Origin: Escherichia phage vB_EcoM_G53
Sequence record: MK327943.1
Length of the DNA: 64,000 nucleotides
Direction: 5' to 3' (one strand)
The translations under genes and the position numbers were made by a program. Of the stretch, positions 746-7,103 are shown one piece after another; within the stretch, counting starts at the first letter, position 1, and each line of letters starts with the position of its first letter. The notes under the pieces were generated by a model. The model searched no databases and was not told the origin of the DNA. It saw only the letters and a list, made by a program, of their open reading frames with translations.

Positions 746-971
746 CTCGGTCCCATGATTTGGCCATTAATTCGGACATAAATTCTTCAATGCGCGTTTC
801 TTTAGATGGACTTTCACTATTAGAGACCGCAAGTTTGTAATCTGCAATAGGACAGAACATATCAAGGTCCATATTAAGGTCGTCTTTGATTTTTTCTTCT
901 GACACATCTTTATCGTATGTGTACAGATAACTATCACATGATTCTGATTTAATGTAAATTGCTATACTCAT
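735..971 (-). CDS. hypothetical protein (78 aa)
   Basis: ORF track 735..986; start moved to ATG 971 (SD AGGAA, ATGA overlap with upstream stop). Confidence 0.5.
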   Translation of the reverse strand: MSIAIYIKSESCDSYLYTYDKDVSEEKIKDDLNMDLDMFCPIADYKLAVSNSESPSKETRIEEFMSELMAKSWDRDDE

Positions 972-1447
972 CTCAAATTCCTGCATTCGGTAATAAAACG
1001 TTCAACTTCATTATTCTTGGCTTTTATCTTGTCTTTATGTTCTTGTAAACTACTTTTAATAAGATTAATAATGATAGCGACGGTGCCGCCGCCAATGATG
1101 CCACCAATAATACTTACGATAGTAGATGCTAATAAGATAGCAATAATATCAACAAAACCGAAAGAACTCACCTTAGTACTAAAAAACCATACCGACGGTA
1201 CAAATATAATCCATCCTGTTATCCATTGGCACTTATTGAAAAACTTTTCAAGCTCAGCTTGAGTTGTTCGTATTACTTCATCGATAGGTTGATATCCATT
1301 AATGTATCTGTTCACGATAATACCTGCTGGCTGGTCGATTTTAAATTCTTGGCAAATATGTTTCACTAAGTAGGATGGACATCCTGTCCAATCTACTGAA
1401 TAGTATGAAATACCTTCGTTGCCATCGTCTATATTATTGTTAATCAT
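968..1447 (-). CDS. small membrane protein with C-terminal ExFIxECR tail (family member 1)
   Basis: 159 aa; hydrophobic stretches WIIFVPSVWFF and IIAILLASTIVSIIGGIIGGGTVAIIINLI; ends ERFITECRNLR; TAATG overlap with upstream gene. Confidence 0.55.
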   Translation of the reverse strand: MINNNIDDGNEGISYYSVDWTGCPSYLVKHICQEFKIDQPAGIIVNRYINGYQPIDEVIRTTQAELEKFFNKCQWITGWIIFVPSVWFFSTKVSSFGFVDIIAILLASTIVSIIGGIIGGGTVAIIINLIKSSLQEHKDKIKAKNNEVERFITECRNLR

Positions 1448-2133
1448 TACCAGCCTTCCATAGGGAATTCCAGATAAACTTGAGCATTGACACGAATTTC
1501 ATTGGTAATCTTTTTAACTCGGTCTGTATTACGAGATACACGTCCGAACCAACGCCATCCATTACTAATTGCACGAGAACCAGTGTGCCATGTTTGCCAA
1601 TCAAACTGAAGAAGAGTACGGTCTGGAGCTTCCCATTTCTCTAGTTCACCTTTTTCAATTTTTTCGAGGACTTCTTTGTGCCACTGACGATAGATAAGTT
1701 CGCCATCAGGAATCTGACTGAACTCTGCAGTTCCTGTTGCAAAATGAGTAGGACACACATCAGCGTTAACAAGACCAAGAATATGTTCAGAATGGTAACG
1801 AGGGTTGTCATAGTCAGGTTGTCCTGCAGTAATAAAGTGTTGTCCAACTGGAATATCAGGGCGTGGAACATCGTCATGGTGATATCCAGGAATAGCAGGG
1901 TACCAACCAGGCATCAGCATATGAACCCGAGAATCAAATACAACATGTTGATTAGTCCAATCAATTGGGAGATTGGCAATAAAGCTACGAGTGATTGAGC
2001 CACCATTATCCCAAGCAAAACCCAAATCACAATTAAAGAACATTGGTTCATTTTTGATTCGGTCATTTTGTACGTTATGTGCAAAACTACCAACTGCACG
2101 AGCTTGACTATTAAACACTTTAGAACTATTCAT
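1447..2133 (-). CDS. hypothetical protein (228 aa); tentative 2OG-Fe(II) oxygenase-like residue pattern
   Basis: Long ORF with ATG and coupling to flanking genes; HHDD ... WHTGSR ... GRVSR pattern loosely resembles HxD...H...RxS; not verified. Confidence 0.55.
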   Translation of the reverse strand: MNSSKVFNSQARAVGSFAHNVQNDRIKNEPMFFNCDLGFAWDNGGSITRSFIANLPIDWTNQHVVFDSRVHMLMPGWYPAIPGYHHDDVPRPDIPVGQHFITAGQPDYDNPRYHSEHILGLVNADVCPTHFATGTAEFSQIPDGELIYRQWHKEVLEKIEKGELEKWEAPDRTLLQFDWQTWHTGSRAISNGWRWFGRVSRNTDRVKKITNEIRVNAQVYLEFPMEGW

Positions 2134-2134
2134 A

Positions 2135-2440
2135 TTATTTTCCTCGACATTCTTTAATGAAATTTTCTAGATTGGTAGATTCAATAGCTTTTTTACGAGC
2201 TTCTGTGTGTTCTTCTTCGGACAATTTACGTTTATAATTGACCCAGACATTATGGTCGAAACCAGACGTGGCATATAATAACAAAGCTCCAACGAATAGC
2301 AAAAATGGTGATAAAAATATACAACCAGGAACACCATCCATACTGTAAGCCTTTTGTAATACTGCAACAGAAAGAGTTGCGTAAAAAGGTGATGCAAGTA
2401 TTGTTAAAAGGCCAATTCGGTTGGTTTCGCCTAATTTCAT
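2135..2440 (-). CDS. small membrane protein with C-terminal ExFIxECR tail (family member 2)
   Basis: 101 aa; two hydrophobic segments; ends LENFIKECRGK; first gene after PeSL promoter at 2461-2498. Confidence 0.55.
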   Translation of the reverse strand: MKLGETNRIGLLTILASPFYATLSVAVLQKAYSMDGVPGCIFLSPFLLFVGALLLYATSGFDHNVWVNYKRKLSEEEHTEARKKAIESTNLENFIKECRGK

Positions 2441-2460
2441 AATATTCTCCTCATGTTTTA

Positions 2461-2498
2461 ATAGGACTACTATAATATAGCCCTATCAGTTTGTACAC
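2461..2498 (-). promoter_or_regulatory. early promoter with inverted repeat (PeSL-type), weaker -35 (TGTACA)
   Basis: Minus strand TGTACA-N17-TATAGT; inverted repeat ATAGGACT / AGCCCTAT brackets the -10. Confidence 0.45.
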
Positions 2499-2699
2499 TT
2501 ATTTTGACATTTCTTCGATGTCACGACGATACCCATCACGAACTTCACGAAGAGCTTCAAGGCCACACATAGGCTCGATACCAGTAATGTGAACTTGATT
2601 AATCTGATACTCTACATCTTCTAACTGAGCGAAAACATAACGACGTTCTGCTGCACAACCAGGTTTAGCTTTACCGAAACGTTTATTCAAAGTAGTCAT
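2499..2699 (-). CDS. hypothetical protein (66 aa)
   Basis: ORF track 2499..2717; start placed at ATG 2699 preceded by GGAG; lies between two PeSL promoters. Confidence 0.5.
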   Translation of the reverse strand: MTTLNKRFGKAKPGCAAERRYVFAQLEDVEYQINQVHITGIEPMCGLEALREVRDGYRRDIEEMSK

Positions 2700-2728
2700 T
2701 TTTATATCTCCATTCACTCATTTGTTTT

Positions 2729-2766
2729 GATAGGTCTATAGTATCAACAACTACAGACCTTGTAAA
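2729..2766 (-). promoter_or_regulatory. early promoter (PeSL-type)
   Basis: Minus strand TTTACA (2761-2766) - 17 bp - TACTAT (2738-2743); short inverted repeat TGATA / TATCA around the -10. Confidence 0.6.
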
Positions 2767-2779
2767 CTGTTTTGCGAAA

Positions 2780-3736
2780 TTATTTGAAAGGTTTTACCAT
2801 ATGGAAATTTTGTTTGAAACGTTTGACGTAATCGTCGTGTCCTAAGCTTTGGTACATACTTACTACTTTGCTATAATTTTCCCAAGCGAACTCACGGAAC
2901 CATCCTGATGTGATTGATGTACAGACCTTTTCAAGGGCCATCATAAAACTATCACGTGGATGGATTTTAAAGTCGTTAGGAATCTGTGAACGTTCAAGAG
3001 CTAATACACAAGCTTCTTCATATACACCGGCTAATTTAACCATTTCTGGTAATGATTCGAACTTCTCGCGTGATGTCATAACTTCTGAGCCTTCTTTCAT
3101 ATAAAACTTATAAGCAGGCTGGTCAGTTAGTGCAATGGCTTCATGGATAGTATCATGGTCATACGTATAGATGTCATCTTTAAAGAACGCACTTTTAGAA
3201 GTGTCAAGAACTGGGTGAGCATAATTCAAGGTTTCTTTCTGGCGTTTCAGCATAATTTCAGTAAGTTCATCGTTCAGTGTAACACCTTTACCACGAAGAT
3301 ACTGAATATGGTTCATAGTCTTTAAAAAGAATGGATTATTTTTCTTGAAACGATGAGACATCTTAATTGCAAGACATATCTCAGGAGTTGCCCAGTAAAA
3401 CCCGTTCAAACGGTCTTTAGTCAAATTTTTCTTGGCGTATTTTAAAAGGTCATAAGAAGACGTGAAATCTTCAGGAGTGAGTTCACCGACTAGTTCGCGA
3501 ACGTTAGTGAGAGCCGGAACGATGTATGCTTCAAAATGAGTTTCGCGTCCATTATGGAAGCATTTGAAAACTTGGACATCAGGGTTATCTTGGTGAACAT
3601 ATACACCCATCATTTGATTTTTGAATGCATTCCAAGAACCTTGGTCCGCAATAAAGTCCCAATCACTATTTTTAATAGCGCTAGAATCAATAAGACCGTG
3701 ATAGTGAAGTGCACGAGAACCAATAACTAACATCAT
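2780..3736 (-). CDS. hypothetical protein (318 aa); N-terminal GS...DWD is weakly nucleotidyltransferase-like
   Basis: Long ORF, SD GAGGAAAAT upstream of ATG 3736; motif IGSRALHYHG...SDWDF; no secure domain call. Confidence 0.6.
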   Translation of the reverse strand: MMLVIGSRALHYHGLIDSSAIKNSDWDFIADQGSWNAFKNQMMGVYVHQDNPDVQVFKCFHNGRETHFEAYIVPALTNVRELVGELTPEDFTSSYDLLKYAKKNLTKDRLNGFYWATPEICLAIKMSHRFKKNNPFFLKTMNHIQYLRGKGVTLNDELTEIMLKRQKETLNYAHPVLDTSKSAFFKDDIYTYDHDTIHEAIALTDQPAYKFYMKEGSEVMTSREKFESLPEMVKLAGVYEEACVLALERSQIPNDFKIHPRDSFMMALEKVCTSITSGWFREFAWENYSKVVSMYQSLGHDDYVKRFKQNFHMVKPFK

Positions 3737-3764
3737 AATATTTTCCTCGGATTAATTCATTAAC

Positions 3765-4004
3765 TTAAATTTCACGACATGCGATATTATATTCATCCCA
3801 GAGGTCATCATGTGAAGCCTCTACCAATGGAACGATTGTACCGTTTATGTCTTCATTATAAGGGCAAATTGTACAGTGCGCATCTTCGAATCGGATGCCT
3901 TTGTGTTCAGATTTTTTATAACGCATATCGAATATCTTTGCAAACTTTTCACGAGTAATGGTTTTACCAACCACTTTGGTTCCGATACTTTCGTAATAAA
4001 TCAT
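3765..4004 (-). CDS. hypothetical protein (79 aa), Cys/His-containing
   Basis: ORF track 3765..4016; ATG 4004 has GGAG 8 nt upstream while ATG 4016 has no SD; contains HCTICPYNED. Confidence 0.5.
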   Translation of the reverse strand: MIYYESIGTKVVGKTITREKFAKIFDMRYKKSEHKGIRFEDAHCTICPYNEDINGTIVPLVEASHDDLWDEYNIACREI

Positions 4005-4023
4005 TGTGGACTCCATTTGTTTT

Positions 4024-4061
4024 GATAGGACTACTATAACATAGCCCTATCTTGTTGTAAA
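4024..4061 (-). promoter_or_regulatory. early promoter (PeSL-type)
   Basis: Minus strand TTTACA (4056-4061) - 17 bp - TATAGT (4033-4038); inverted repeat ATAGGACT / AGCCCTAT brackets the -10. Confidence 0.65.
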
Positions 4062-4066
4062 CTGTT

Positions 4067-4264
4067 TTAGCAAGAATAACTAGATGATACCCAGCCTTGA
4101 ACAGTGATACTATTGTGGGATAATGAGATCGCGTCCTGGAGATTCAGACCTGCGTTATCTTCAATCCATAATGTAACTTCTTCGCGTTCTTCTGTTGCAA
4201 TTTGGAACAGGTTTTCCAGAGCAGCTACTGCCGTACGTACAGCACAATCTAATTCACGAGACAT
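4067..4264 (-). CDS. small protein, GxWVxSSxxC C-terminal family (paralog 3 of 3, 65 aa)
   Basis: Ends VQGWVSSSYSC; SD TAAGGAAAC overlapping upstream stop; third of three tandem paralogs. Confidence 0.55.
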   Translation of the reverse strand: MSRELDCAVRTAVAALENLFQIATEEREEVTLWIEDNAGLNLQDAISLSHNSITVQGWVSSSYSC

Positions 4265-4273
4265 ATTGTTTCC

Positions 4274-4546
4274 TTAGCAAGTGTGAGAAGATGCGACCCA
4301 ACCACCAGTTTCGAGGCTCAGGTTGTAGTCGTATTGGTAAACGTCAGCCCATTCAGCATAGCCGTTTTTTGTACAACGTTCAAGATCGGCTTTAAGATGT
4401 CCGGGTGAATGATAGGTTCCACCCATACCATAAGCTGGGTACAAGTTGAACGTTGTGTTTTGTTTATCAGCAATTTCTTTGGCAGCCTCAATAGCTGCAT
4501 AGATTTTTGCTACAGCTTCAGCCAGTTCGGTTTGTTCTTTAGACAT
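4274..4546 (-). CDS. small protein, GxWVxSSxxC C-terminal family (paralog 2 of 3, 90 aa)
   Basis: Ends TGGWVASSHTC; shares YGxGGTY with paralog 1; SD TAAGGAAT overlapping upstream stop. Confidence 0.55.
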   Translation of the reverse strand: MSKEQTELAEAVAKIYAAIEAAKEIADKQNTTFNLYPAYGMGGTYHSPGHLKADLERCTKNGYAEWADVYQYDYNLSLETGGWVASSHTC

Positions 4547-4555
4547 AACGATTCC

Positions 4556-4861
4556 TTAGCACAACGCAGAAGACGAAACCCAAGCACCTTCAGTAATAAC
4601 GTAACCATTACCTTCACGCTTAACATCGCCACCATTATTTTCAATTTCATCTTTCATCCACTGGGATACGATTTCACCCTTAGGATAATAAGTACGACCG
4701 CTACCATAATCACCTACAGAAAATGATACGGCATATTGGTCTGCGATCTTTGTTGCTTCTTCTTCGATACGTTCAGCTTGATTCAGAAGTTTATAAATTG
4801 CATCTGAAGCGGATTTGGCATCATTAAACTCTGGTACTTTAATTTCAATAATCTTACTCAT
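4556..4861 (-). CDS. small protein, GxWVxSSxxC C-terminal family (paralog 1 of 3, 101 aa)
   Basis: Ends EGAWVSSSALC; ATGA start/stop overlap with upstream membrane protein gene. Confidence 0.55.
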   Translation of the reverse strand: MSKIIEIKVPEFNDAKSASDAIYKLLNQAERIEEEATKIADQYAVSFSVGDYGSGRTYYPKGEIVSQWMKDEIENNGGDVKREGNGYVITEGAWVSSSALC

Positions 4862-5217
4862 TTTCTACATTCCTTAATAAAGTTTTCGATTGTTTCATTT
4901 TCACGTTTAGCTAGAAGTTCATTATAACTAATCATTTGAGAAGCGTAAATCTTTTTATTTTTCTTGTTATGGTTTATAAAATCGTAGTAAAAATAGACTA
5001 CAGTACAAAATGATGCGATGGATGCAAAGGCTTGGGTATACCGTAAGTCCTGCCATTGGTCTGTGAATCCACCAGTGTTCCCTATAAATCCTAACACAAC
5101 GCCGTCAATAAGAAATCCAACTAATCCAAAGGCAAATCCCATGCCAATACTCATAATAAAAATTAGAATGTTCTCACCAAGAGAAGGCCATACGGTTAAG
5201 AGTTGAGGCTTTTGCAT
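4858..5217 (-). CDS. small membrane protein with C-terminal ExFIxECR tail (family member 3)
   Basis: 119 aa; hydrophobic segments; ends IENFIKECRK; SD TTAAGGAAATAAG upstream. Confidence 0.55.
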   Translation of the reverse strand: MQKPQLLTVWPSLGENILIFIMSIGMGFAFGLVGFLIDGVVLGFIGNTGGFTDQWQDLRYTQAFASIASFCTVVYFYYDFINHNKKNKKIYASQMISYNELLAKRENETIENFIKECRK

Positions 5218-5591
5218 CTTATTTCCTTAACGAATTCCATAGCTTCTTCATATTCATACTTTTTAACAGCTTCATCATACTGAGCTTGGGCTTTTGCGCA
5301 CTGAACTTTCCATTCTCTTAATCGGGCTCTGTGATGACGGCCTTGGTGCCAATATCCTACCCAATTAATAGGCATTAATAAAAACGGTACAATAAGTGGT
5401 GCGACGAACATTAATGAAAATGCTGCATCAGACGATATAACTTCACTAGAATCTAAAACAGCTCCTATAATCATAAAGATTAAAAATGCTAAAGCTAAAA
5501 TAGGGCCAAATAATACTTCATTTGGGATTAATTTACGCTTGTATTCATACGCCCAGGGCTTACTTGGCATGTATAGGGTTGGCTTTGACAT
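5196..5591 (-). CDS. small membrane protein with ExFVKEIRC-type C-terminal tail (family member 4)
   Basis: ORF track 5196..5621; start moved to ATG 5591 (MSKPTLYM) just after the conserved tail codons of the upstream gene; hydrophobic segments. Confidence 0.5.
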   Translation of the reverse strand: MSKPTLYMPSKPWAYEYKRKLIPNEVLFGPILALAFLIFMIIGAVLDSSEVISSDAAFSLMFVAPLIVPFLLMPINWVGYWHQGRHHRARLREWKVQCAKAQAQYDEAVKKYEYEEAMEFVKEIRCKSLNS

Positions 5592-6162
5592 ATTCTCTAC
5601 ATTCCATAATAAATTGCTCAAGGATTAAATTGTTAGTGAAATTAGGACTAACAACCATAGTTTCATAAAGCGCATCAATAGCACTTAAAGCATCAACTCT
5701 TTTAAGCAAAGGCTTGCCTTCATACATAGTTTCAGAATCGATGATTAACGTAAAGTAATATTTTTTATTATCGACTAGAACTTCTGTATCGATATAAAAC
5801 ATATTAGACCTCAGAAGCTTATCTCTAAAGCCATAATAATCTTCAGAGCGTTCGCTGATATATTCCCATTCAGTGTTTAAACAACAAACAGACCACGTAG
5901 GAGCAACGAAATCAGTGAATCTAATATCATGGTCTGCAACTAGTTTAGCAATAGCTCCGATATCATGAATCATAATACCTGGGGCTAATAAAGATTTTCT
6001 GCTATGGCTAGCCGTTTTCTCGGTGGTCTCATAAGAAGACGACCAGTACCATTTACGTCCGGTTGCAACATATCGTAATGAATCAACTAAAGACGTAGGT
6101 GGATTTACCTTATCTCGGAACTCTTCGAACATTGAGTCAATATCATTATTTTGGTTTCGCAT
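5560..6162 (-). CDS. hypothetical protein (200 aa) with ExFIMECR motif near C-terminus
   Basis: ORF track 5560..6183 begins at TTG; ATG 6162 has a strong AAGGAG SD; contains LEQFIMECREY. Confidence 0.55.
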   Translation of the reverse strand: MRNQNNDIDSMFEEFRDKVNPPTSLVDSLRYVATGRKWYWSSSYETTEKTASHSRKSLLAPGIMIHDIGAIAKLVADHDIRFTDFVAPTWSVCCLNTEWEYISERSEDYYGFRDKLLRSNMFYIDTEVLVDNKKYYFTLIIDSETMYEGKPLLKRVDALSAIDALYETMVVSPNFTNNLILEQFIMECREYVKANPIHAK

Positions 6163-6181
6163 GTTAACTCCTTTATTATCC

Positions 6182-6203
6182 AAAAGGAGGACCGGAGTCC
6201 TCC
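6182..6203 (-). terminator. hairpin plus short U-run (weak terminator or attenuator) between operon genes
   Basis: GGAGGAC-CGGA-GTCCTCC perfect 7-bp stem followed by UUUU on the minus strand; sits in the leader of the next gene. Confidence 0.45.
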
Positions 6204-6211
6204 GTATTATT

Positions 6212-6805
6212 TTATTTCAAAGAGTTAATATATTCTTGTACATCAGCAGAAGTGGTTTCGACGCCGGCTGGAGTGCCATTGAACGTTTCAACACGAGTCA
6301 GAGTGTCTTCGATATCAACCTTAGTCAGTGCAGCTATTTCAATTACATCATCGGCCGTAGAGATACCAAGGGCATTAGCTGCTCGAGTTTCACGAATGTA
6401 TTCGAGTTTGATTGCCAGATTCTGACGAGCATCGTCAAGTTCAACCACCTTACGAGCAATTTCAATTCGCATAGCGGCATACCCGTCAGCTTTTGTATTA
6501 AGTTGTTCGGCAGTTCGACGATACAGAAGACCAAGCTTAGCATGCATAGTAACATCTTGTCCTTCAGCCAGGAGCTTACGAATTTCACGTTCCTTAGAAG
6601 CGGCTTGCTTGTTCTTTTCATTAACAAGTTCGCGAATACGTTTTTCTTCATTAATAGATTTAACAGAAGCCGTTTTTAGTTCTTTGATTTGGGTAATCAA
6701 CTTATCTGCAGCTGCGTTATACTGTTCTTCGACAGTCAGATTTTTAGCCATAGCAGTACCCAGTTTAGTGCGGATGAATTCAACAAGTTTCTTCAGTGTG
6801 TTCAT
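6212..6805 (-). CDS. coiled-coil protein (197 aa); weak resemblance to PspA/IM30-type proteins, unverified
   Basis: ORF track 6212..6820 begins at TTG; ATG 6805 preceded by AAGGT; Lys/Glu/Ala/Arg-rich heptad-like sequence; first gene after promoter at 6841-6875. Confidence 0.55.
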
Positions 6806-6840
6806 ATTATTACCTTTCAATTGGTGGTTTATTATCCAAT

Positions 6841-6875
6841 GAGAGCATTATACTCTGCTCTCAAGAGTTTGTAAA
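6841..6875 (-). promoter_or_regulatory. early promoter (PeSL-type) with consensus -10
   Basis: Minus strand TTTACA (6870-6875) - 17 bp - TATAAT (6847-6852); inverted repeat GAGAGC / GCTCTC brackets the -10. Confidence 0.65.
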
Positions 6876-7103
6876 TTATTTTTTAATCAAATTGACATAA
6901 AACTTGGCGTCTTCTGGGTGCATGCCTTCGCAGTATTCTTCAACCATGAACTTCTTAACAGCTTCATAAGGACCACTCAGATTAAGCTCAGTTGTCCAGA
7001 ACTTGGAATCTTGGGCTGAATCGATATGAACTTCAGGGTGACGGTTGCGAATAACTTCTTCTGTGTATTCATAATCAACGACATCAATACTAACTTTAGC
7101 CAT
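6876..7103 (-). CDS. hypothetical protein (75 aa)
   Basis: ATG 7103 preceded by GAGAGGAAAA; single-gene cassette between two PeSL promoters. Confidence 0.5.
   Translation of the reverse strand: MAKVSIDVVDYEYTEEVIRNRHPEVHIDSAQDSKFWTTELNLSGPYEAVKKFMVEEYCEGMHPEDAKFYVNLIKK

Follow-up and report, generated by a model that had tools for sequence, protein, structure and literature searches.

Four early genes of phage T4, e.6, e.5, e.4 and e.3 (T4p129–T4p126), are known from their early RNAs and from the detection of all four proteins (PMC9697503 supplement), and a further supplement lists them as genes of unknown function (PMC11879866). Here, we analyzed a locus of seven minus-strand genes at positions 4067–6875 of a 64,000-nucleotide stretch of Escherichia phage vB_EcoM_G53 (sequence record MK327943.1), the whole of which is hereafter called the window. 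The locus is the RB69-lineage form of the T4 e.6–e.5–e.4–e.3 early cluster, followed by three tandem genes for small acidic proteins, designated p101, p90 and p65. Its first four genes are direct orthologs of the T4 genes, with identical order and identical overlaps, the same early promoter before e.6 and a hairpin after it. The last three correspond to RB69ORF136c–139c and are missing from T4; all genes are still annotated as hypothetical. An earlier note, made from the sequence alone, had proposed the seven genes as an undescribed system and had recognized none of them as T4 core genes. The second claim falls with the four T4 orthologs. The first is not supported as it stands: four genes are catalogued in T4 and three in RB69, with no function assigned to them. 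Nor are all seven well-characterized genes, the finding that the note had named as fatal to its proposal; four are annotated yet uncharacterized. What is new is the placement of e.6 in a protein superfamily and the company of non-canonical partners, the genes themselves being already catalogued.

Beyond the T-even phages, the cluster can be compared with the psp operon of E. coli (PspA, PspB, PspC), whose first product was named 'phage shock protein'; in bacteria, PspA/Vipp1 seals membranes under stress. In both, the first gene encodes a protein of about 200 amino acids that has a long hairpin after an N-terminal helix and belongs, or in the case of e.6 probably belongs, to the PspA superfamily; it is followed by genes for small inner-membrane proteins with cytoplasmic helical tails, as predicted for the window. 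There are also differences. PspA/Vipp1 and e.6 share about 10–17% identity; e.4 and e.3, with two hydrophobic segments apiece, have no relationship to PspB and PspC; there is no PspF-type regulator, and a phage early promoter takes the place of the stress-induced sigma-54 promoter. The phage locus further has an extra soluble partner, e.5, and a C-terminal partner motif that is foreign to the Psp system.

Vipp1/IM30 of cyanobacteria and chloroplasts and the ESCRT-III proteins (CdvB, Snf7, CHMP) provided the best profile and fold matches to e.6, with the order α0, α1/α2-3 hairpin, α4 and α5 in common. Compared with Vipp1, e.6 is shorter (197 amino acids) and ends without the α6 extension. The model of its α4 and α5 is of low confidence, and its polymer formation, which in the family gives rings, rods or carpets, is presumed from this kinship. 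The T4 proteins Imm/Sp and rIIA/rIIB resemble the cluster as early, membrane-associated, conditionally dispensable factors concerned with envelope integrity or depolarization (general T4 knowledge), but they have no detectable sequence relation to it, and their mechanism does not involve a PspA-like polymer.

Probable placement of e.6 in the PspA/IM30/Vipp1 branch

Profile searches and structure prediction gave good support for placing e.6, as a divergent protein, in the PspA/IM30/Vipp1 branch of the ESCRT-III superfamily, by an assignment that is transitive and structural. Direct library searches with the protein gave no match in Pfam, NCBIfam or PADLOC, and the PHROG that it matched has no known function. 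The family is small, comprising 39 clusters by word-indexed search and, in a set of 1.84 billion proteins, 45 representatives; full-length members, among the matches listed, measure 195–234 amino acids. When a profile of close e.6 relatives was run against the PDB, Vipp1 was among six matches (E about 1, co-linear). With distant members added, the profile of 36 sequences ranked Vipp1/PspA proteins in the first seven places and also matched 6zvr (E 9e-5 to 1.5e-3), with co-linear alignments of residues 1–146 to 1–147.

The distant members supply the transitive step. The relatives P0070 and P0064, both full-length, were retrieved by the e.6 profile (E 6e-17 and 3.4e-20, respectively) and exceed the PF04012 cut-off of 33.9 bits (39.0 and 35.1 bits, E 1e-8 to 1e-9). 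The Pfam family PspA_IM30 was matched by five e.6 family members at E ≤ 10, and the four that were identified have E ≤ 1.3e-4. The 'ANxN' signature of the N-terminal helix α0 of PspA/Vipp1 is kept in distant e.6 members, and hhalign of the family alignment against E. coli PspA gave E 3e-4 for residues 1–59 versus 1–59. The segment LTRVETF of e.6 was paired with MARFESF of PspA only in a non-significant alignment.

AlphaFold2 modeling of e.6 (mean predicted local distance difference test, pLDDT, 75.6) yielded an N-terminal helix at residues 2–18 (α0, at pLDDT <50), hairpin helices at 25–80 and 86–145 with pLDDT 83–95 and, after a low-confidence linker, short C-terminal helices at 166–174 (α4) and 186–196 (α5). 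The hallmarks of the superfamily are the helical hairpin that α1 forms with the conjoined α2/α3, and α5 packing on the hairpin of a neighboring subunit, termed Interface 1 (PMC8281802); the helical hairpin is present in the predicted structure of e.6. In the family, α4 comes after an elbow linker. A Foldseek search of the PDB with this model listed Vipp1 in the first eight positions (best E 1.1e-3, probability 1.0), with archaeal CdvB2, PspA and Snf7 below.

No database name that was inspected calls these proteins PspA. Public records list e.6 as 'hypothetical' or as 'host specificity protein' (from ACLAME 1259), and some records list e.4 as 'sulfurtransferase'; both names appear to have spread by automatic annotation, and the sequence searches run gave no support for either. 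A PspA- or ESCRT-III-like protein encoded by a lytic phage was not described in the literature searched, which covered open-access papers and preprints. The most PspA-like relatives of e.6, on the metagenomic T4-like contigs L007 (5001–6383) and L009 (5001–7293), adjoin replication genes of the gp41/uvsX type and not the lysozyme gene.

A C-terminal motif shared by the proteins encoded after e.6

The C-terminal sequence F-[IV]-x-x-C-[RK] ends e.5, e.4, e.3 and the corresponding proteins of other genera; the forms in the window are FIMECR (e.5), FIKECR (e.3) and the variant FVKEIRC (e.4). The e.4 variant not counted, four of 122 open reading frames (ORFs) of at least 60 amino acids in the 64-kb window have the motif within 26 residues of the C-terminus, and all four lie on the minus strand within 968–6162: e.5, e.3 and two ORFs outside the cluster, 2135–2440 and 968–1447 (Table 1). 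T4 e.2 is shorter than the RB69-type e.2 and has no such motif. In hhalign comparisons of e.4 with e.3, the significant similarity coincides with the 10-residue C-terminal motif and extends no further (E 2.9e-6).

The motif partly coincides with the ribosome-binding site of the next gene, where AAGGA codes for K-E. Three observations speak against the ribosome-binding site as the whole explanation of the motif: copies of the motif use different codons (TGT/TGC; AGA/CGA/AGG), the next start lies at varying distances, and the motif is kept in proteins of Aes012 and Margaery that have no overlapping downstream gene. On two T4-like contigs from metagenomes, both of them distant, the gene that matches PspA_IM30 is followed by genes for membrane and soluble, apparently related proteins, most of which end in a different common motif, I-[LV]-x-x-A-R. 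We infer that the motif tail may be a docking element for an e.6 polymer.

In every annotated locus examined (Tevenvirinae, Tulanevirus and Pseudotevenvirus, including Jiaodavirus and Dhakavirus), an e.5-type gene comes directly after e.6 and the hairpin, as it also does in viral contigs where e.6 precedes the paralogs. Its products measure 184–301 amino acids. An alignment of twelve of them showed F184 and C188 to be invariant and N96 and R189 to be nearly so. No relative of e.5 was found in the PDB or in the local Pfam library; the precomputed Pfam entry for e.5-type proteins, PF26876, is not part of that library. The segment WYWSSSYE of e.5 (residues 38–45; YYWGSSYE in T4) resembles the paralog tail WVSSSYSC and is not found in e.5-type proteins of other genera; the likeness is probably due to chance.

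The two membrane proteins share a general layout. In e.4, a single long hydrophobic stretch (residues 20–80) can be read as two transmembrane (TM) segments forming a hairpin; e.3 has a hydrophobic stretch at 15–48 and, by reading of the sequence, a second segment near 63–81. Basic flanks and a C-terminal helical tail of some 40–50 residues are common to the two proteins, and their N- and C-termini are probably cytoplasmic.

Distribution, gene order and the hairpin after e.6

The gene e.6 was found in 1109 phage records, and tblastn detected e.5, e.4 and e.3 in 643, 674 and 700 records, respectively; the lower count for e.5 arises because the gene has, in the loci examined, diverged rather than been lost. 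A soluble motif protein after e.6, then TM motif protein(s) and tandem paralogs, is the order that recurred in 18 of 21 independent viral contigs, and it was kept down to 38% paralog identity. The unit is composite: its core (e.6, e.5-type and TM genes) is conserved, and the paralog tail varies from no copies (T4, Klebsiella phage KP185) to five (Dhakavirus).

Among the non-coding features of the locus, the hairpin that follows e.6 is the most conserved. All 22 distinct sequences obtained from 28 loci have it, in 17 different hairpin sequences with a ΔG of −13 to −21 kcal/mol; it starts 0–9 nucleotides past the stop codon, and its loops are mostly UUCG, UCCG or GAAA. T4 has a hairpin in the same place, followed by UAUUACUU without a U-run, and the feature is annotated as a terminator in ATK47 and Margaery. 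In the window, about 25 nucleotides separate the hairpin from the e.5 start, leaving no room for a promoter. Since e.5 and the following genes have neither a promoter of their own nor space for one after the hairpin, they are expected to be transcribed by read-through, with termination being partial. The hairpin may be an attenuator or a 3′-end stabilizer that sets e.6 above the downstream genes.

Early promoter-like elements bordering the unit

The unit is bordered by two early promoter-like elements (Table 1), each of which contains, within 6825–6880 and 4015–4066 of the minus strand, respectively, an inverted repeat around its −10 hexamer. Compared with the T4/PST early-promoter consensus TTTACW-N17-TAYWAT (PMC4122927), the site at 6875 is a full match and the site at 4061 has one mismatch (TATAGT); their activity is predicted. 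In T4, TTTACA-N17-TATTAT occupies the same place before e.6. As a class, promoter-like matches were not above shuffled sequence, with 11 found versus 12.8 expected in the region. The two sites are credible because they are located in intergenic gaps, because the T4 element likewise stands before e.6 and because they match the published consensus. No MotA box or late promoter was found on the minus strand between 3500 and 7500. A further promoter-like site, TTTACG-N17-TATAAT (10/12 matches), lies at 4921–4949 on the minus strand, inside e.3 and 60 nucleotides before the p101 start; it could allow separate expression of the paralogs or be a chance match.

Both bordering elements are like the promoter-early stem-loop (PeSL) cassettes of T4-type hyperplastic regions in their consensus, their stem-loop and their position at the edge of variable gene blocks. 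In the window, the inverted repeat overlaps the −10 hexamer. PeSL cassettes have been proposed to mediate module shuffling in T4-type phages.

Small acidic paralogs

The tail G-W-V-[SA]-S-S-x-x-C-stop is common to p101, p90 and p65. Two of them, p101 and p90, belong to phrog_899; p65 belongs to phrog_4882 and is tied to the others by tail, reading frame, position and 9-nucleotide spacing. The AlphaFold2 model of p101 reached a pLDDT of 89, and no structural relative of it was found in the PDB. Relatives of the paralogs occurred in 394 phage records, most of them from T4-like phages of Escherichia, Aeromonas, Enterobacter and Klebsiella and a few from records of about 140–155 kb (phiWec181, FKP3); a protein of an Acidovorax phage was a further match, in the fold search. 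The small paralogs form an acidic, phage-only family ending in G-x-W-V-S-S-S-x-x-C. From the 21 viral contigs, dhaeg and the window, 65 distinct members of 65–112 amino acids with a net charge of −3 to −14 were collected; since they were picked by the tail pattern (W, serines and terminal Cys), only the G at −10 and the V at −7 represent independent conservation. These proteins are most likely a variable accessory tail, binding host or defense proteins, and are not demonstrably part of the same machine as e.6.

In the RB69 reference (AY303349, 6040–6346), a one-nucleotide insertion splits p101 into ORF139c and ORF138c, and a Ser-to-Pro change is found in the SSS tail. The frameshift may be either laboratory-strain decay or a sequencing error.

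Possible function and alternative explanations

No function is assigned to the cluster proteins in the records or libraries searched (Pfam, PHROGs, NCBIfam, PADLOC). We hypothesize, with about even confidence, that the cluster is a phage-borne Psp-like module for inner-membrane maintenance or remodeling, with a variable accessory tail. In this module, e.6 would assemble on the host inner membrane, at its cytoplasmic face, into oligomers like those of PspA/Vipp1, and the motif-bearing proteins would recruit, anchor or regulate it, filling the role that PspB and PspC have for PspA while being unrelated to them in sequence. The hairpin would keep e.6 in excess over the downstream genes, which would fit a polymer-forming coat protein with sub-stoichiometric partners. 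The module would keep the inner membrane sealed and energized, or reshape it, during infection. Because T-even phages shut off host transcription, the host cannot induce its psp operon at that stage, and it is under this condition that the module would be of benefit. Envelope remodeling, which was among the functions suggested in the earlier note, gains support from the PspA-like e.6; superinfection exclusion and anti-defense stand as alternative candidates.

A farther-reaching proposal, which we put forward tentatively and consider doubtful as a whole, is that T-even phages carry their own ESCRT-III-type machine. The e.6 polymer, with e.5, e.4, e.3 and the products of ORFs 2135–2440 and 968–1447 as adaptors docking by their C-terminal motif helix, would seal or remodel the inner membrane, and the acidic W-V-S-S-S-x-x-C proteins would represent a new class of effectors.

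Several findings weigh against a Psp-like module. CRISPRi-ART knock-downs of T4 e.3–e.6 were all 'Not Fit', i.e., without a fitness cost in the laboratory (PMC11879866 supplement), and any membrane role is conditional for this reason. Neither e.4 nor e.3 has similarity to PspB (PF06667) or PspC (PF04024) in Pfam or NCBIfam, and contact between the motif and e.6 is hypothetical. Two of the 21 contigs have the paralogs 3–4 kb upstream of e.6, a further one has paralogs but no e.6, and in Aes012 and Margaery e.6 and e.5 are retained with no TM genes adjoining. As for e.6 itself, the 197-amino-acid protein of the window has no PF04012 (PspA_IM30) match in Pfam at E ≤ 0.1, and its close-family alignment gave no significant hhalign match to E. 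coli PspA. The hydrophobic moment of α0, which in the family is an amphipathic helix that binds membranes (0.43 in e.6 versus 0.42 in E. coli PspA), is reached by 7.9% of shuffles (p about 0.07). Coiled-coil composition inflates scores, with an HMMER bias of 16–18 bits in the search with the 36-sequence profile, and the Foldseek E, near 1e-3, is borderline, with many other coiled coils lower in the list and a model that is poor at residues 1–18 and 151–155. The missing Pfam match, the compositional bias and the Foldseek result would also be expected if e.6 were a generic coiled coil whose likeness to PspA/Vipp1 is compositional and fortuitous. We find this hardly credible: among PDB chains numbering in the hundreds of thousands, Vipp1/PspA comes first independently in sequence and in structure searches, both proteins are aligned from residue 1 and co-linearly over about 145 residues, two family members lie above the curated Pfam threshold, and length and helix order match PspA.

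The distribution data also bear on the view that there is no single system, and that unrelated accessory genes are packed in the hyperplastic e-to-tRNA region with only e.6, perhaps together with e.5, forming a unit. Tight junctions and a common promoter are normal T-even style and imply no joint function; the hairpin parts e.6 from the rest in every locus; T4 and KP185 have no paralog tail, and the RB69 reference has a frameshifted p101; the paralog family also occurs away from e.6 and in non-T4-like phages; TM genes are missing at the Aes012 and Margaery loci; and conserved order may simply reflect common descent. We nevertheless regard this view as improbable, given that the C-terminal motif joins e.5, e.4, e.3 and two membrane ORFs and is found nowhere else in the 64 kb, that the gene order recurs among distant loci, and that e.5 to e.3 lack a promoter of their own. 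A counter-defense module is likewise unlikely in our estimation. Here, a PspA-like coat with membrane partners would neutralize abortive-infection effectors that depolarize or perforate membranes (for example RexAB-type channels; TM effectors of CBASS, retrons and the like), and the acidic paralogs would inhibit defense proteins. The T4 orthologs are early expressed and dispensable in the laboratory, as conditional anti-defense genes are; the hyperplastic region is bounded by PeSL-like elements; the acidic paralogs are tandem and variable in copy number, as is typical of arms-race genes; and T4 rIIA/rIIB, needed only against the membrane-depolarizing RexAB, offer a precedent (10.1101/2025.11.20.689424). 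Against it, PADLOC gave one noise match (E = 0.01) and no model match, no Pfam or NCBIfam family with an assigned function was matched, and the matching PHROGs are all of 'unknown function'. Moreover, e.6 is highly conserved between T4 and the window (Table 1) and widespread, more like a housekeeping than an arms-race gene, and the main text of the HIDEN-SEQ preprint does not list these genes among the conditionally essential ones. Superinfection exclusion or a block of DNA entry, in which the hairpin membrane proteins e.4 and e.3 would, in the manner of T4 Imm or Sp, stop secondary genomes or lysozyme at the envelope, with e.6 as scaffold or stabilizer, would agree with early expression, with dispensability in single-infection laboratory assays, and with a size and inferred topology (two TM segments, cytoplasmic termini) like those of known T4 exclusion proteins (general knowledge). 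It appears very unlikely, as no similarity to Imm or Sp was detected in Pfam or PHROGs, T4 already has a dedicated imm/sp system, and some genera have retained e.6 and e.5 but not the TM proteins.

Should e.6 act as PspA does, as the phage-borne Psp-like module would require, a function would be given to a gene of more than 1100 sequenced T4-like phages, including T4, and a tractable model would be available of a virus that keeps or reshapes the bacterial membrane after silencing the host stress response. The common C-terminal motif is a mutable handle for finding which phage membrane proteins contact the presumed e.6 polymer, and T4 makes every step directly testable.

Gene layout and genomic context

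Over its 2.9 kb, the region shares 99.7% identity with Escherichia phage mobillu and 98.4% with RB69 (genus Mosigvirus), and at least 80% of it is covered in 136 phage records. The RB69 record names its genes e.6, e.5, e.4, e.3, RB69ORF139c + 138c, 137c and 136c, flanked by a frd.3 homolog upstream and RB69ORF135c downstream. Features of the locus are listed in Table 1.

Table 1. Features of the e.6 locus and motif-bearing ORFs in the window.
Feature	Position	Strand	Remarks
Early promoter-like element, TTTACA-N17-TATAAT	6847–6875	-	11/12 consensus matches; inverted repeat encloses −10 hexamer, −13.8 kcal/mol
e.6 ortholog, 197 amino acids	6212–6805	-	88% identity to T4 e.6
GC-rich tetraloop hairpin	6186–6203	-	just after e.6 stop; 7-bp stem, UCCG loop, −14.4 kcal/mol, then UUUUGG
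e.5 ortholog, 200 amino acids, soluble	5560–6162	-	47% identity to T4 e.5; C-terminal FIMECR
e.4 ortholog, 131 amino acids, membrane protein	5196–5591	-	54% identity to T4 e.4; ends FVKEIRC
e.3 ortholog, 119 amino acids, membrane protein	4858–5217	-	35% identity to T4 e.3; ends FIKECRK
p101, small acidic paralog, 101 amino acids	4556–4861	-	RB69ORF139c + 138c; ends GAWVSSSALC
p90, small acidic paralog, 90 amino acids	4274–4546	-	RB69ORF137c; ends GGWVASSHTC
p65, small acidic paralog, 65 amino acids	4067–4264	-	RB69ORF136c; ends QGWVSSSYSC
Next early promoter-like element, TTTACA-N17-TATAGT	4033–4061	-	inverted repeat over −10 hexamer, −16.0 kcal/mol; bounds unit
RB69ORF133c-type protein, 101 amino acids, N-terminal two-thirds hydrophobic	2135–2440	-	outside cluster; C-terminal FIKECRGK
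RB69-type 'e.2' membrane protein, 159 amino acids	968–1447	-	outside cluster; C-terminal FITECRNLR

Much of the earlier note's description of the layout was borne out. All seven minus-strand ORFs are present with the coordinates and sizes it gave, as are the promoter-like elements at 6875–6847 and 4061–4033, and the co-oriented, densely packed unit stands behind a T4-type early promoter, its T4 orthologs being early transcripts. The coiled coil noted for the 197-amino-acid protein corresponds to the long helical hairpin of the e.6 model, the membrane character of the 131- and 119-amino-acid proteins to their hydrophobic stretches, and the three small ORFs are indeed paralogs. Tight coupling applies from e.5 on, with overlaps of 32 (e.5/e.4), 22 (e.4/e.3) and 4 nucleotides (e.3/p101) and spacings of 9 nucleotides at both p101/p90 and p90/p65, the three paralogs being in one reading frame, but not to e.6 and e.5, which are parted by a 49-nucleotide gap containing the hairpin. 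A Shine–Dalgarno sequence had been noted for each gene; AAGGA-type sites precede six of the seven starts, whereas that of e.4 is weak. The e.4 start at 5591 (131 amino acids) is favored by T4 e.4 (130 amino acids, MSKPSLY...) and by a match to PHROG 2604 over residues 1–130; in RB69 and ATK47 the gene is annotated with 124 amino acids, from an internal Met (position 5571 in the window).

The nudE-to-tRNA interval, which the note had judged several kb longer than in T4, measures 8.4 kb in the window versus 3.7 kb in T4. T4 e.2 directly follows e.3, whereas the e.2 homolog of the window lies 3.4 kb further, beyond five inserted genes. Among the ORFs inserted between e.2 and e.3 relative to T4 is one of 318 amino acids (RB69ORF134c; 2780–3736, minus strand), composed of DUF7277 (E 1e-27) and DUF7275 (E 9e-79). 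Just upstream of e.6, a frd.3 homolog (Pfam Phage_FRD3, E 6e-38) is located at 6876–7103 on the minus strand, where T4 has e.7; the presence of frd.3 in place of e.7 is a gene rearrangement at the promoter cassette.

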